DNA of 64,000 nucleotides, taken from Desulfurococcales archaeon (GTDB lineage Archaea > Thermoproteota > Thermoprotei_A > Sulfolobales > Desulfurococcaceae). The position numbers were made by a program, and so were the translations under genes. The stretch covers positions 384,001 through 448,000 of the forward strand of contig JALVYU010000026.1 of assembly GCA_027022365.1 (NCBI GenBank), read 5' to 3'. Every line of letters begins with the position of its first letter. The stretch's first letter is position 1. A model generated the notes under the pieces. It saw nothing but the letters and a program-made list of their open reading frames with translations, did no database searches and was not told the origin of the DNA. This document shows, piece by piece, positions 39,376 through 45,766 of the stretch.

Positions 39376-40125
39376 TTGGTTGCAAGGATAAAGGCCTTTA
39401 TGCTTAAGGGATTTGATCCATCAGAACTCAAAGGCTCGATCTTCGTGACGGGTTATCAGGGCTTTGGAATGGTCGGATATCTAGCTAGTAGACACATAGC
39501 TATGGAACTGAGTCTTCAACGCGTAGGCTTTATAAAAACACAGCACATGCCCGAAGCAACATTCTATAAAAAAGGATATGGGCTCACCTATCCTTTCGAA
39601 CTGTATTATGGTGTTGTAAATAATAAGAAACTACTGGTACTCGTTAACCACGGTACACCCCATGTACGTGAAAGAACAAGATACGCCGAATATCTGGGCT
39701 CTTGGCTTAAAAGTGTAGGTGTTAGCGAAGCCATACTTATAGGCGGTTTGGACCCTGCTGTAAGGGAGAAAGAAGATGAGAAATACCGGTGGATCCCGAT
39801 AGGAGATTGTAAGAGACAGCTGGATGCACCATTGCTCGAAGAAAAACACGTTATAGGACCTCTTGCTCTAACAATGTTGTTCCTAGAAGCCAACGATATT
39901 CCAGGCGTGGCTATATTTGCTTATACGGAGCTGTACCGCCCGGATCCTAGGGCTACTGCTGTTGCTGTCGATATTATCTCAGATATACTGGGGGTTAAGA
40001 TAAAGACTGATCGCCTCCTGGAAGAAGCTAAGGTTATAGAGAGGATCGAGGAGAAGAAAAAAGAGATGCTCAAGGCTCTTGAAGGCGAGGTTGAGACCGA
40101 ACGAGAACATCCAATGTATGTCTAG
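39376..40125 (+). CDS. Proteasome assembly chaperone (PAC2 family)
   Basis: TGYQGFGMVGYL, IGGLD, GPLA, PDPRATA; in operon with pan. Confidence 0.85.
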   Translation: MVARIKAFMLKGFDPSELKGSIFVTGYQGFGMVGYLASRHIAMELSLQRVGFIKTQHMPEATFYKKGYGLTYPFELYYGVVNNKKLLVLVNHGTPHVRERTRYAEYLGSWLKSVGVSEAILIGGLDPAVREKEDEKYRWIPIGDCKRQLDAPLLEEKHVIGPLALTMLFLEANDIPGVAIFAYTELYRPDPRATAVAVDIISDILGVKIKTDRLLEEAKVIERIEEKKKEMLKALEGEVETEREHPMYV

Positions 40126-41653
40126 CGCATTTAATACCGTGCCCTAAAAGCATATCACATACTGTTTCTGATAGGCTTTCGGACCAGGAATCCCCAACAT
40201 AATATATTATTACCTCAACTATACTCTTTCCAACCTCCTCGAGTCTTATTATTGTATCAGCAATCTCATTTGAGCTTTCGATAATGGTATAACGGTCGAT
40301 GTTGTCATTGTATTCATGCTGGAAGAACGGGTAAGTGTTGGAAAGACTTGGTGAAAATACGCCTAGGAATGGATGATAAAATAGGCATTTTTCATCGGGA
40401 ATTATTTCTTTAACTAACTCGATGATGTTGCTATAAGGTTTCCTAATAGCTGGTACTAAGTAAATGGTATTTCCAAGATTTAGCTTAGACAAGACGAAGT
40501 CGTATACGTTCTTTTTAATTACTCTGAGTCTTGGATGATATAAGCTATCGTAGTCGTTCATCATTATAGCGAAGGTATTAGGTTTTGTGAGAGGATTATA
40601 TTTTTCGAGTAGCCTAACGTATTTCTTAACTATATTAAACGCTGATCTAAGCGATGGGTGAGCTTTGCTCTTATATTCGAGATACTCCCATAACCTACCT
40701 TCCTTTATATGTTCCTTGATTTTCCTGAGCTCCTCCATGAGGACGTATAGATTATGGGTCGCTAATAATTTGATCTGCTCTTTTCTCTTTAGACTCTTTA
40801 GCTCTGCCAGTGTATATCTGGAACATACTGGGCAATTGCATGGAAGATAGGTTAGCTCGTCTAACCGTCTTGTCCCTGTCTCAGTCATGTAGCGGCCGTC
40901 TCGAGCGTATAGAATATAGCTCGCACTATCAAAAAGATCTGCACCCAAGGCTACTAGAAAAGGTAGAATCATCGGGTGCCCGACACCGAATACGTGGAGT
41001 GGTTTCTGAGGGGGCAAATGTAATCTTGCTAGTGCGACAAGCTCTACTATGTCCGCATAATCATATCTTTCGAGAAGTACTGTAGGAGAACCTAGTGCGT
41101 GGATGTGGTAGGGATACTTCCATGCGCGTAGGCTGGAGTAGAGCACGAGATCCCTATATGGTGCCCCTTGAATAGGGAGAACCCATAATTGATCAGTATC
41201 CATTATTAGAGGTAAGGCTTCTGTTGCTCTATCAAAAGTCTCAAAGACAGCTCTACGTGCTTCTTCCCATGACATTTTAGTTCCTGTTGGTACATCAAGT
41301 ATAACGCCGATGTCAACGCCGATCTGTTTCTCATACTCGATTATTGTCTTATTATCTATTTCAATGTCTCCATAAACCAGTACTTGGTATCCCCCAGAAT
41401 CGGTCATAATTACTTTGTTCCATTTTAGCGTGTCGTGTATGTTCTTGGGTCTTCCTCTATTTCTTCTGTAGAAGAGGTATGCATTTGTAATGAAGGCGTT
41501 AAAACCCATTTTCTCGATTACATATAAGGGCACATCTTGTCGAGTAGGATCAACTACGGGAAAAAGGTAGGGTGTTTCCATTGTTCCGTTTTTTGTTTTT
41601 AGCTTTGCTATCCTTCCAGCTAGATCATATTCTTTTGGGTCATAGTATTCCAA
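40070..41653 (-). CDS. tgtA: Archaeosine tRNA-guanine(15) transglycosylase
   Basis: MTDSGGYQ, LDVPT, HVFGVGHP, DLFDSASY, CNCPVC, HNL. Confidence 0.93.
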   Translation of the reverse strand: MEYYDPKEYDLAGRIAKLKTKNGTMETPYLFPVVDPTRQDVPLYVIEKMGFNAFITNAYLFYRRNRGRPKNIHDTLKWNKVIMTDSGGYQVLVYGDIEIDNKTIIEYEKQIGVDIGVILDVPTGTKMSWEEARRAVFETFDRATEALPLIMDTDQLWVLPIQGAPYRDLVLYSSLRAWKYPYHIHALGSPTVLLERYDYADIVELVALARLHLPPQKPLHVFGVGHPMILPFLVALGADLFDSASYILYARDGRYMTETGTRRLDELTYLPCNCPVCSRYTLAELKSLKRKEQIKLLATHNLYVLMEELRKIKEHIKEGRLWEYLEYKSKAHPSLRSAFNIVKKYVRLLEKYNPLTKPNTFAIMMNDYDSLYHPRLRVIKKNVYDFVLSKLNLGNTIYLVPAIRKPYSNIIELVKEIIPDEKCLFYHPFLGVFSPSLSNTYPFFQHEYNDNIDRYTIIESSNEIADTIIRLEEVGKSIVEVIIYYVGDSWSESLSETVCDMLLGHGIKCARHTLDVLVRSQPRLQEP

Positions 41654-41654
41654 A

Positions 41655-42107
41655 TTACTTTCCCTTTAGAACCTTCTTTCTTTCCTCCATATATTTCTGG
41701 AAGAACTCATAGATTGTCTGTGCTAATGGGCCTGTGCCTTCCACGCCTTTCTCTGTCACCTTGTAGCGGCTCTGGATAATCACAGCTCTAGCTTCAGGTA
41801 TTATCTTGATTAAATGCTCAGGTATACGCATGTTTCTCATGATGAACTCCTTAAAGTCTTCGGGCTCGAATAATGGTATTTCTGTTGTCAGTATCTCCGA
41901 GACTCTTTCTCCCTTGATAAATACTTTAGGATACGTATTACCATTGTTATCAACAGCGTTTTCCAACAATAGGTTCAGACTCGGATGATCGAAACCAACT
42001 AGTTTTCCCTCGTAATATCGTCCATCAGCAAGAATAACCTTGATCTTCTTGTCAACTAGGCCGGCGAGCTCAGCCGCTAATCGTCTGGAAGCATCGATTA
42101 TGCCCAT
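41655..42107 (-). CDS. Sm-like archaeal protein with C-terminal domain (SmAP3)
   Basis: YEGKLVGFDHPSLNLLLENA Sm motif plus an extra C-terminal domain. Confidence 0.85.
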   Translation of the reverse strand: MGIIDASRRLAAELAGLVDKKIKVILADGRYYEGKLVGFDHPSLNLLLENAVDNNGNTYPKVFIKGERVSEILTTEIPLFEPEDFKEFIMRNMRIPEHLIKIIPEARAVIIQSRYKVTEKGVEGTGPLAQTIYEFFQKYMEERKKVLKGK

Positions 42108-42196: not shown

Positions 42197-42547
42197 ATGC
42201 CAATATACAAGTGTAGGATTGATAGTATTGAGCCGCTCAGGTTGCCCGATGTTTATAGGGCTAAGCTTAGCTGTGATAATGTATCAATGGAAGTAGAGCT
42301 TCATGAAAAGATAATGAAGTTAAAACAAGGGACGGATGTTGAGGTATATATTGATAAGAGTAAGGATAAGTGTCTGCAACATGATTTCTGTGGCCGAGCA
42401 CATGTAGTTTCGATCAATAAATTCGAAGACTATTATCGTGTGGTATTATCTATTGCGGGGCTTCTTGTTGTTATCAAGCTTCGTGAACAGCCTAGGGCAC
42501 CGTTTAAAGTTATGAATGAAGTATATGTTGGTATTAGATATGTTTAA
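42197..42547 (+). CDS. rpo8: RNA polymerase subunit Rpo8 (RpoG)
   Basis: OB-fold-like, DFCGRAHVV, LSIAGLLV, VYVGI; size and context fit crenarchaeal Rpo8. Confidence 0.8.
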   Translation: MPIYKCRIDSIEPLRLPDVYRAKLSCDNVSMEVELHEKIMKLKQGTDVEVYIDKSKDKCLQHDFCGRAHVVSINKFEDYYRVVLSIAGLLVVIKLREQPRAPFKVMNEVYVGIRYV

Positions 42548-42656
42548 GTTATGATATAATACCTTTCTTAGCAAAAATACTCCATTCTTGATCATGTATT
42601 TAAGCATATGTAAGATAATCTTCCTAAATAAGGGAGCCAATTATAGAGGGGCGATA

Positions 42657-42992
42657 TTGAAACGTGAGACTACGATATTGGTCGAACTGCTTAGGTACTA
42701 TGATTCCACCGATGACAAGGTATTCGAAGAGCTTCTCGAGCTACAGCGGTATATAGCTCTCCGGACAGCCAAAAACAAGGATTTAGAATACTATATTATA
42801 TCTTATAGTAAGAACAAGGGGAAAGATAAGGGCGTTGTAATAGTAATTCGAGGAATACCTGAAATGACATATAGAGAATCAGAACTACTTGTAGACTATA
42901 TCAAGAGCAGATTCACCACGATCACTTGTAACCGCCTAAATCGTGGCAAGACAGTAAAGCTAGAACTTCCTGTGCCGCAAAATTTTTTCTAA
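42657..42992 (+). CDS. Hypothetical protein; probable N-terminal part of a frameshift fusion with the downstream ATPase
   Basis: TTG start after GGGGCG; ends ...PVPQNFF* on A AAT TTT TTC TAA. Confidence 0.65.
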   Translation: MKRETTILVELLRYYDSTDDKVFEELLELQRYIALRTAKNKDLEYYIISYSKNKGKDKGVVIVIRGIPEMTYRESELLVDYIKSRFTTITCNRLNRGKTVKLELPVPQNFF

Positions 42993-43033
42993 GGCTCTTT
43001 AGGAGAAGATATGATCAAATAAAAGGATTTGTT

Positions 43034-44107
43034 GTGGTCAATTTTATGCAGGCGAGTATTAGATATCCTGTACAACTTATTGGTAGAAGTATTGAGAACC
43101 GCATGGGGAATAATGGAATAGTTCTAGGGAAGGCCCTCGGCTGTAAGCAGGAGCCACTTATTGTAATGCCAGTTAGTGTGCTGTATAGACATATTCTCGT
43201 GGTGGGGGCAACTGGTTCTGGCAAGACTAGGACAACGGCATTCATTATTAACTCATTACAACACGCCTATCCAGACAAGTATAGGGTGATAATCCTAGAT
43301 TGGCATGGTGAGTACAGTTCTCTTTTGAAAAAATATATTTATATAAATCCTTATAATGCCCCCATCAATATCGTTGATACTAAAACATTATCATGGATAG
43401 AAACATTATATGATGTACTGGGGCTAACAGATCCTCAAGCGTATGTTCTCCAGAAAATAATCGAGAAATCGAATATTGCTCCAAGTATTGATATCAAGAA
43501 ACTATATAGGCTAATCGAAGAAATGAATACCGAGAATGCTAAATGGATGAAAGAAGTAAAATACGCATTACTAAGAAGACTCGCCCCACTGGCCTACGGT
43601 GATAATTATAAACTCTTTACAGGGACCAAAGACTTTCTCGAGCTGTTCAAAAATAGGACTACCTATGTTATAGATCTAAGTATGATACGGGAGACAAGGA
43701 TTAAGAGAATATACGCTACATTCATTATTCGTTATGTTTTCGACTATGCTTTAAGGAATAGTATGCGCGACACTGTACTTGTGATCGAAGAAGCACATAA
43801 TCTTATGAAGAAGAGTGATTCTCTAGAAATAATTACACGTATGTTATCAGAGATACGTAAGTTTGGTGTTGGTGTTATAATAGTTTCTCAGTCCCCCAGC
43901 GGACTTAGTGATGATATTATGAAGAACACTGCTTCCAAGATAATTCACTCAATAAAATCCTCCGTAGACTTAGAAACTATATCTAGATCGCTCGTATTGG
44001 ATAAAGAACTCATTAGCATAATTCCTTATCTCGAACCGGGAGAAGCAGTCGCGGCACTACCTAATTATAAAAAGCCATTATTGGTTAAAATAGGGGGGTT
44101 TACCTGA
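43034..44107 (+). CDS. HerA/VirB4-like P-loop ATPase (DUF87), possibly CedD-like
   Basis: RHILVVGATGSGKT, ILDWHGEY, VIEEAHN, SEIRKFGVGVIIVSQSP; frame is open upstream to 42932. Confidence 0.88.
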   Translation: MVNFMQASIRYPVQLIGRSIENRMGNNGIVLGKALGCKQEPLIVMPVSVLYRHILVVGATGSGKTRTTAFIINSLQHAYPDKYRVIILDWHGEYSSLLKKYIYINPYNAPINIVDTKTLSWIETLYDVLGLTDPQAYVLQKIIEKSNIAPSIDIKKLYRLIEEMNTENAKWMKEVKYALLRRLAPLAYGDNYKLFTGTKDFLELFKNRTTYVIDLSMIRETRIKRIYATFIIRYVFDYALRNSMRDTVLVIEEAHNLMKKSDSLEIITRMLSEIRKFGVGVIIVSQSPSGLSDDIMKNTASKIIHSIKSSVDLETISRSLVLDKELISIIPYLEPGEAVAALPNYKKPLLVKIGGFT

Positions 44108-44122
44108 AAAACTTTGAAGAAC

Positions 44123-45766
44123 TTACTCTTCTTCCTCTTCACCGCTCTTTCCAGTCTCTTCGGGTTTTTCGACCTTACTTGCTGCTATAATGTCATCGAT
44201 TCTTAGAATTATTGTTGCGGCCTCTGTTCCTGCCTTTAGCGCGTTAGCTTTTATGCTTACTGGCTCAATTACGCCTAGCTCCATCATATTGGCAAGATCT
44301 CCTGTGAATACATTGACACCCGTCCACTTACCCTCTGGTGTCTCGTGGGCTGCCCTCAGCTTCATTATTATTTCTACTGGGTCTAGTCCAGCGTTCTCTG
44401 ATAGTGCCATGACTAGTCCTTCTAGTGCCTTTGCAAAAGCCTCGATTGCCAGCTGCTCCTTGCCTCCGACAGTCTTTGCAAATTTTCTGAGATGCTTTGC
44501 TAGCTCGGTCTCAACGGCTCCTCCGCCTGCAACGATCTTCCCGTCCTTGATAGCATCTGCAACAGCTGCCAGAGCATCTCGTAGGCTTCTCTCAGCCTCA
44601 TCAACCAGTCTCTCGAGTCCTCCACGTATCACTATGCTTACCGCCTTGGGGTTCTTGCATCCCTCAATGAACACCATTTTGTCTTCTCCAACTTTTCTCT
44701 CTTCAACAAGCTTTGCTTCGCCGAGATCCTCGGGTCTTAGGTCGTCGATGTTGCTTACTATTCTTCCTCCTGTTGCTCTTTCTAGTTTTTCCATGTCGCT
44801 TCTCTTTACTCTTCTTACTGCTAGTATTCCTTTCTTGGCGAGGAAGTGCTGGGCAACCTCATCAATACCCTTCTGACAAATCACAACATTAGCACCAGTC
44901 GAAGCAATCTTCTCAACCATCTTCTTGAGGATCTCTTCCTCCTGCTCCAGGAATGCTTTTAGCTGTGAAGGGTCGGTTATTCTGATCTCTGCATCGATCT
45001 CGGGCTTTTCTATCTCTAGTGGTGCATCAATTAATGCTATCTTGGCGTTTTCAACTTTTCTAGGCATACCCGGATGGACTACTTCTTTGTCAAGAACTAC
45101 ACCGTATACTAGCATCGAGTCAACTAAGCTACCGCCATACTTCTTTATGATCTGTACGTTGTCTAGGTCGATGTAGTATTTGTTACCTCTTTTCTCAACG
45201 ATCTGTTTGACGGCCTTGACGGCTAGTTCGGCGAAGTATTCTCTTGCATCGTGCACAGCTTTACTTGTGAGGCTAGTCTTAGCGATCTTCTTGAGGGTTT
45301 CCTCATCGTTTATGTCTATGGGCTCCGCGATCTCGTAGAGATACTTGAGTGCCTCATCAAGTGCCTTTCTATAACCGCTGACTATGACTGTTGGATGTAT
45401 GTTCTTATCTAGAAGCTCCTCGGCATGTCTCAATAGTTCGCCAGCAAATATTACAGCAGTCTTAGTTCCATCACCAACTTCTTCGTCCTGACCCTTTGCA
45501 ATCTGTACTAGCATTTTGGCTGCTGGATGCTGAACCTCCATTTTATCGAGAATTGTTGCGCCGTCATTGGTTATTGTTACATCTCCTAGGGCATCTACAA
45601 GCATTTTATCCATTCCTTTCGGGCCGTAAGTTGTTCTTAGGGTTTCTGAAATGGCTCTTACAGCCATTATGTTTGTTCTTAGGGCCTCTCTTCCTACGGT
45701 TCTCTTAGTGCCTTCCTTGAGTATTAGTACAGGTATTCCCATAGGCTCGACTACCATTGTGATCAC
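44123..45766 (-). CDS. thsB: Thermosome (group II chaperonin) subunit, beta-like
   Basis: [30 protein letters not shown]. Confidence 0.93.

Follow-up and report, generated by a model that had tools for sequence, protein, structure and literature searches.

CedD (Saci_0667, SiRe_1715) is the second ATPase of the Ced system and is essential for DNA import in Sulfolobus acidocaldarius and Saccharolobus islandicus (PMC11868833, PMC11823120). The characterized protein is described as a single polypeptide with a transmembrane segment in addition to its N-terminal and ATPase domains (PMC11868833), some orthologs are reported to lack the transmembrane segment (PMC11823120), and Desulfurococcus is stated to have VirB4 instead of CedB and CedD (PMC11868833). 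Here, we analyzed a 64,000-nt stretch of DNA from a Desulfurococcales archaeon of the family Desulfurococcaceae (GenBank assembly GCA_027022365.1, contig JALVYU010000026.1, positions 384,001 to 448,000 of the forward strand; hereafter, the window), in which cedD lies in two open reading frames (ORFs) offset by one base. The initial annotation, made from the letters of the window alone, had proposed that a -1 programmed frameshift joins a small ORF to a HerA/VirB4-like ATPase. Comparison with related genomes supported this proposal through a conserved offset and a slippery heptamer in 40 of 40 loci, and full-length CedD would probably be made by -1 ribosomal frameshifting at that heptamer, helped by the adjacent stop codon, with a 111-aa protein as the major and a 483-aa protein as the minor product.

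Genes with two products of -1 programmed ribosomal frameshifting (PRF) are familiar from bacteria and viruses and include orfA/orfAB of the IS3 family, the phage tail chaperone genes G/GT, retroviral gag-pol, and dnaX. From one mRNA, these genes yield a short product of the 0 frame in abundance and, through an X_XXY_YYZ site, smaller amounts of a trans-frame fusion, and the gag-pol site of Rous sarcoma virus, A_AAU_UUA, provides a precedent for AAU in the P-site. For archaea, a 2021 review (PMC8211752) describes the -1 PRF of fucA1, encoding the alpha-L-fucosidase of Saccharolobus solfataricus P2, at A_AAA_AAT, as the only one reported, and also mentions predicted cases in haloviruses and magnesium chelatase. 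The initial annotation had cited fucA1 as an example of how rare validated archaeal cases are, in agreement with that review. A -1 frameshift in the magnesium chelatase genes of Methanocaldococcus and Methanococcus is among the predictions of GeneTack (PMC3711429).

The frame junction of cedD and its conservation

The upstream ORF of the window (ORF1, 0 frame, positions 42657..42992, forward strand) encodes 111 aa from a TTG start to a TAA stop, and a GAGGGG motif at 42646..42651, read from the sequence as putatively Shine-Dalgarno-like, precedes the start by 5 nt. The position of the start is kept in the genus, being TTG in three close relatives and ATG in another species (L012). ORF1 ends with the codons CAA (42978), AAT (42981), TTT (42984), TTC (42987), and TAA (42990), which hold two overlapping in-phase slippery heptamers, A_AAT_TTT at 42980..42986 and T_TTT_TTC at 42983..42989, the latter with the 0-frame stop (TAA, 42990..42992) immediately 3'. 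A TAA at 42929..42931 in the -1 frame sets the upstream limit of the possible shift window; from 42932 this frame is open for 391 codons to a TGA at 44105-44107 and overlaps ORF1 by 58 nt. Downstream of the site, the -1 frame comprises a 19-codon linker (42989..43045; LRLFRRRYDQ...) that is coding in this frame only and has no conserved start codon, followed by the C-terminal HerA/FtsK-type ATPase domain of CedD, from a genus-conserved ATG to the TGA (43046..44107). The Walker A motif of the ATPase (GATGSGKT) lies at 43205..43228, with G54, T56, G57, G59, and K60 invariant in 17 orthologs. Counted from the coordinates, a slip at either heptamer gives an identical product of 483 aa.

Most of what the initial annotation had described here stood unchanged: the terminal codons and both heptamers are present, the -1 frame runs from 42932 into the ATPase, the fusion had been put at about 480 aa, and the nearby GGAG precedes only a 3-codon ORF starting at ATG 43011. 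This GGAG is part of three consecutive Arg codons (AGG AGA AGA) in the -1 frame. Two candidate starts occur in the ATPase frame, GTG 43034 and the in-frame ATG 43046. The former had been given as the start of the ATPase; the codon exists, but it is not conserved in the three closest relatives, where the conserved codon is ATG 43046.

We then scrutinized 63 genomes of the Desulfurococcaceae for cedD, taking an ATPase match at E<=1e-40 as presence, and read every junction. The gene was found in 47 genomes, of which 40 had the -1 arrangement, three a +1 arrangement, and four a fused gene with 500 to 513 codons open; in two of the 40, the gene is split over contig ends with its junction intact. 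The -1 loci were examined in two sets, a first 28 and then 12 further. The initial annotation had proposed to look for the offset and the slippery site in orthologous loci, and both recurred: besides the shared offset, a perfect in-phase X_XXY_YYZ heptamer was present at the same Phe-Phe site, inside the possible shift window, in every one of the 40. Elsewhere in these genes, in-phase perfect heptamers occupied 41 of 12,797 codon positions (0.32%), and the chance expectation was 0.89 of the first 28 loci with a heptamer in the shift window, against 28 observed. The Phe codon of the slip site was TTT in 40/40 loci, compared with 217 TTT and 213 TTC elsewhere in the same ORFs.

The T-run at the site was five bases long (T5) in eight -1 loci and six (T6) in 32. 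A_AAT_TTT occurred in 21 of the 40, including all eight T5 loci, where it is the sole complete heptamer possible. T_TTT_TTC or T_TTT_TTA was present in all 32 T6 loci, only 14 of which had a matching triplet ahead of the run, because one of these heptamers is already complete there. One -1 locus carried a compensatory G_GGT_TTT. The 0-frame stop directly followed the heptamer in 28/40 loci, and this adjacent stop is a likely stimulator of the shift. At two loci (L013 and L018), nothing but the 7-nt heptamer separates the stops of the -1 and 0 frames.

The -1 arrangement spans at least 18 genus groups, with Thermogladius, Staphylothermus, and Thermosphaera among the cultured genera, whereas the genus of the window is known solely from metagenome-assembled genomes of hydrothermal vents. 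Since the ATPase of the window shares only 34-46% identity with those of -1 genera outside its own, the arrangement is old. Outside the Desulfurococcaceae, nearly all homologs are fused. In a quick IQ-TREE phylogeny of the ATPase domain (86 rows, 52 of them fused; branch support by the SH-like approximate likelihood ratio test, SH-aLRT, only), the -1 forms fell into a 21-row clade (SH-aLRT 95) and the 5-row clade of the window (SH-aLRT 100), both of which meet a 7-row clade of four fused and three +1 forms (SH-aLRT 99) at an unresolved fork. A single origin of the -1 state is possible on this tree. Two genera of the family, g13 (0/4 genomes) and g17 (0/3), had no cedD match at the threshold used, five of these seven genomes being 97-100% complete and the others 91% and 88%; this absence fits the replacement of CedB and CedD by VirB4 reported for Desulfurococcus (PMC11868833). 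In one complete genome, the ATPase match (G059:C1:1200307-1201332) holds one in-frame TGA.

A gene broken by a 1-nt deletion in the T-run, either as a pseudogene or as a homopolymer error of assembly, might be suspected, given that homopolymers are indel hotspots and that many of these genomes are metagenome assemblies. The same offset, however, is shared by 40 genomes, among them complete chromosomes in a single contig, for example those of Thermogladius (NZ_CP196893.1 and NZ_CP151274.1), and both halves have stayed open with invariant Walker motifs at the sequence divergence noted above. The initial annotation had wanted the T6 run verified in raw reads; we checked assembled contigs from Logan, in which rare variants would not show, and those of four public runs (four coded studies, P1-P4) crossed 42980-42992 with 0 gaps or indels. 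The window itself may come from one of these runs (X1 of P1, depth 173), and another contains a diverged relative showing 10 differences. Assembly error was rejected on the basis of these contigs together with the complete genomes, and a broken gene of either kind is extremely improbable. An mRNA intron was also considered and is not needed to account for a 1-nt offset.

The two domains and the linker between them

The downstream ORF encodes an ATPase of the HerA/FtsK type (Pfam DUF87, 1.1e-22) that matched the NCBIfam CedD model NF053655 at E=1e-86. The aligned part of the model is positions 200-525 of 527, so that the first ~200 positions are missing from the ATPase ORF, and its score of 291.7 bits is under the equivalog cut-off of 600. 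This ORF outscores every other CedD match of its 1.74-Mb genome (290.5 bits, the next reaching 86 bits), and it groups with CedD-length proteins of the Sulfolobaceae in the ATPase tree. ORF1 had no match in Pfam or NCBIfam, and NF053655 itself does not detect the N-terminal domain there. A hidden Markov model (HMM) built from nine naturally fused CedD homologs, in contrast, matched ORF1 at HMM positions 31-129 (E=1.9e-8) and the small upstream ORFs of 18/20 split loci at HMM positions ~26-136, identifying ORF1 as the N-terminal domain of CedD. By homology, the two ORFs are thus assigned to one gene, cedD, whose product in the crenarchaeal Ced system for DNA import is an ATPase of the HerA/FtsK family. 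Present annotation treats them as unrelated, calling the first a hypothetical protein and the second a truncated ATPase.

ORF1 has no hydrophobic (transmembrane) segment and was modeled as a soluble alpha/beta domain. AlphaFold2 returned a compact beta-alpha-beta-beta-alpha-beta fold with a mean predicted local distance difference test (pLDDT) of 84.6 and a predicted template modeling score of 0.75, followed by a low-confidence tail from about residue 95. Foldseek comparison of this model with the PDB gave only generic ferredoxin-like matches (best E=2.8e-3) and no VirB4 N-terminal domain. In the model of a natural fused homolog (L023, 486 aa, pLDDT 85.7), the same domain occupies residues 9-100 and the ATPase begins at about residue 131. 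The FFRR of this homolog (residues 115-118) falls within its sole long low-confidence stretch, 109-126, which places the slip site in a flexible, disordered linker between the two domains. According to these models, termination in the 0 frame would release a complete N-terminal domain.

The linker itself is 19 codons long in all five species of the window's genus, and its variable columns in four close species number 3, 2, and 6 at codon positions 1, 2, and 3 of the -1 frame. Judged from its sequence, the stretch after the 0-frame stop is coding in the -1 frame. The initial annotation had also suggested searching for in-frame fused homologs; such homologs exist and are collinear with the product of the slip. 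FF and the conserved YP motif are 21 residues apart in 4/4 fused homologs and at least 31 of the 40 -1 loci, and the pattern of FF, one or no residue, RR, a hydrophobic stretch, and YP.Q is common to both forms, the fused genes reading TTT TTT CGN AGA at the site. From the -1-frame stop to the YP motif, 21 of the 40 -1 loci (17/28 and 4/12 in the two sets) have no ATG, GTG, or TTG at all. Comparison among genomes therefore establishes the identity of the gene, the conserved offset, the in-phase heptamer, the coding constraint on the linker, and the frequent lack of a start codon for the ATPase.

Under a ribosomal shift, translation would initiate at TTG 42657 in the 0 frame, and the majority of ribosomes would stop at TAA 42990 and release the 111-aa N-terminal-domain protein. 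A fraction would slip one base back on A_AAT_TTT or T_TTT_TTC (42980-42989) while the A-site is filled by, or waits at, the adjacent stop. The slipped ribosomes would then read the -1 frame through the 19-codon linker into the ATPase, giving full-length CedD of 483 aa, and the slip site would at the same time encode the conserved Phe-Phe of the flexible interdomain linker. That the shift would set the ratio of short to long product, as the initial annotation had supposed, is a reasonable inference.

The neighborhood of the gene was also compared across 78 related loci. In the window, rpoG, encoding RNA polymerase subunit G (42197..42547, forward strand; Pfam PF16992, 5.8e-20), lies upstream of cedD, and an ORF for a thermosome subunit (44123..45766, reverse strand) is its convergent downstream neighbor. 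A thermosome homolog adjoins cedD convergently in 62/78 loci, records of Acidianus, Metallosphaera, Stygiolobus, and Saccharolobus included, and rpoG is upstream in 38/78. The gene order rpoG, cedD, thermosome (convergent) is widely kept across the order, and this synteny agrees with the CedD identity of both ORFs. The initial annotation had placed a UV-induced HerA-like ced component beside the thermosome gene of Sulfolobus; the ATPase is indeed CedD, and the adjacency extends to the Sulfolobaceae. Further upstream and on the reverse strand are a gene for a 150-aa Sm-like protein (41655-42107) with an Lsm domain and an Lsm C-terminal domain (PF01423, PF14894) and, abutting it on the same strand, a 527-aa ORF (40070-41653). 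The best CedB-like ORF of the genome lies outside the window (G000:C26:348087-349685, reverse strand; 564 codons open) and matches the CedB model weakly, at 57.6 bits against a cut-off of 700.

Competing explanations and other states of the site

Several observations weigh against a ribosomal shift. The genomes are kin, and so the counts of loci do not equal independent events. Among public sequencing runs, no RNA run was listed as containing the DNA of the window. When the 70 nt after the T-run were folded at 80 C for 25 loci, no conserved stable RNA structure or hairpin was detected 3' of the site (18/25 folded to 0 kcal/mol; mean z-score -0.3), and an Rfam scan of 42400-43400 returned nothing at E<=1. 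The T5 or T6 run that lies at the junction of every split locus could in principle support slippage of the polymerase as well. Some ATG, GTG, or TTG occurs before the YP motif in 19 of the 40 -1 loci, and in nine of those 19 an ATG or TTG overlaps the 0-frame stop, permitting termination-reinitiation; directly after FF, these loci read ATGA (L027 and L130-L134) or TTGA (L016, L047, and L123). Finally, the in-frame ATG 43046 is conserved in 5/5 species of the window's genus, so that a separately initiated 353-aa ATPase is possible there.

The start codons bear on true gene fission, in which the N-terminal domain and the ATPase would be separate proteins and no frameshift would occur, the ATPase starting by itself (at ATG 43046 in this genus) or by termination-reinitiation. 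Besides the conserved ATG and the nine stop-overlapping loci, this explanation could draw on gene callers, which treat the small ORF as a gene of its own for a hypothetical protein of 107-133 aa, in keeping with its separate entries in protein databases (10 matches, without Pfam domains), and on the two loci of another family that are split without any slippery site (L034 and L037). Against it stand the 21 loci with no start codon ahead of the YP motif and the linker before ATG 43046, which is open, constant in length, variable mostly at third positions of the -1 frame, and alignable with the linker of fused proteins. Moreover, no Shine-Dalgarno-like motif was seen before ATG 43046, where the stretch varies among relatives, and fission alone leaves the retention of the heptamer and of TTT unexplained. 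We consider fission unlikely. The ATGA/TTGA overlap, a classic arrangement for termination-reinitiation, may represent an evolutionary route from frameshift to true fission.

The two loci lacking a slippery heptamer, L034 (G026) and L037 (G038), belong to another family of the order, show a -1 offset, and sit on long branches. Their upstream ORF was not recognized by the HMM of the N-terminal domain, and each may be either a true fission or a decayed gene.

Programmed transcriptional slippage, by which the polymerase would add one U in the U5-U6 run and ribosomes would read a subset of in-frame cedD mRNAs normally, is compatible with the run at every junction and with the lack of a detected downstream RNA structure. 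Related lineages also show both -1 and +1 offsets at this same run, either of which a slipping polymerase could make good. Efficient slippage of the polymerase is, however, known usually from runs of 8-9 or more, whereas those of cedD reach only five or six and do not qualify as long homopolymers. A polymerase would have no need of a phase-specific heptamer, yet one is present in 40/40 loci. The preceding AAA in all eight T5 loci, compared with a matching triplet in 14/32 T6 loci, is the pattern expected if selection keeps a complete tRNA re-pairing site, and a stop directly after the heptamer in 28/40 loci is a feature relevant to the ribosome. Slippage of the polymerase is accordingly quite improbable. 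Ribosomal frameshifting remains the preferred reading: the heptamer statistics, the covariation of T5 with AAA, and the adjacent stop point to the ribosome, and we infer that the shift is ribosomal rather than transcriptional, that its efficiency would leave the short product in the majority, and that this product may have a role of its own.

The site also occurs in other states. The +1 loci, L019/L049 (G007), L025/L051 (G022), and L050/L138 (G041), with L029/L068 in another family, have the same Phe-Phe site. In the 0 frame they read TTT TTT followed by CGA or CGG (CTT in L029), with a stop within 1-4 codons; as options for an independent start, two loci have a Met codon 9-15 codons past FF and one has a TTG upstream. 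Expression of these loci could involve either +1 frameshifting, in which the A-site Arg codon would probably be a rare one, or independent starts. The four fused forms of the Desulfurococcaceae (L021, L023, L052, and L053), which share one clade with the +1 forms (SH-aLRT 99), retain the T6 run and a CGN Arg codon, and from these sequences, changes of state at the site seem to have come about one base at a time.

A wider interpretation, tentative and on balance doubtful, sees in the Phe-Phe U-run of the cedD linker an ancient recoding switch that has persisted through the radiation of the Desulfurococcaceae, moving among -1, in-frame, and +1 states at the same site. On this one gene, these archaea would then shift frame in both directions, by -1 (A_AAU_UUU or U_UUU_UUC plus a stop) and by +1 (UUU_UUU_CGR, whose A-site Arg codon is probably rare), and the free 111-aa domain would be a separate, stoichiometrically tuned Ced subunit, not a by-product.

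Comparison with known systems

Full-text literature on frameshifting in archaea and Thermoproteota, on CedD, and on locus tags of the cedD region yielded no publication on a cedD frameshift. The words 'frameshift' and 'pseudogene' do not occur in the available text of PMC11868833 (main article) and of PMC11823120, 'split' is not used there in a relevant sense, and Table S1 of the latter gives one locus tag per Desulfurococcales species, including Staphylothermus, Thermogladius, and Thermosphaera (PMC11823120). Likewise, the article text of PMC3711429 does not mention HerA, DUF87, Staphylothermus, or Thermosphaera.

If the proposed shift is real, tandem slippage of the classical type serves archaeal ribosomes as a durable means of gene expression, and cedD offers a phylogenetically rich system for signals that work at 80-95 C, where RNA structures are weak. 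Two CedD isoforms would be predicted for these lineages, a free N-terminal domain and the full-length protein. The interest for the fields of recoding and archaeal DNA exchange would be high.

In agreement with characterized CedD, the ATPase of the window is the top CedD match of its genome, is preceded by a homologous N-terminal domain, and has a thermosome neighbor; unlike characterized CedD, the gene lacks a transmembrane segment and has its two domains in different frames. Among frameshift genes, cedD resembles fucA1 in being a cellular archaeal gene with an N-terminal ORF in the 0 frame, a C-terminal ORF in the -1 frame, an in-phase heptamer in a short overlap, and fused homologs elsewhere. 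The two differ in heptamer (A_AAT_TTT or T_TTT_TTC in cedD), in protein family, and in the stop that usually follows the cedD site directly. The fucA1 frameshift is, moreover, described as confined to two S. solfataricus strains, with full-length genes in other Sulfolobales (PMC8211752), whereas that of cedD is kept in 40/47 gene-bearing genomes of its family. The magnesium chelatase of GeneTack is alike in that a conserved frameshift was predicted by comparison for a cellular gene of archaea that has fused relatives, but its site is a poly-A run and its cluster of 23 genes from six genera is mostly bacterial (PMC3711429).

Unlike the two-product -1 PRF genes of bacteria and viruses, cedD has no detected downstream hairpin or pseudoknot, its adjacent stop is the likely stimulator, and its host is a hyperthermophilic archaeon. 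The proposed mechanism is of a known kind; new are the gene concerned, how deeply it is conserved, and the archaeal setting.

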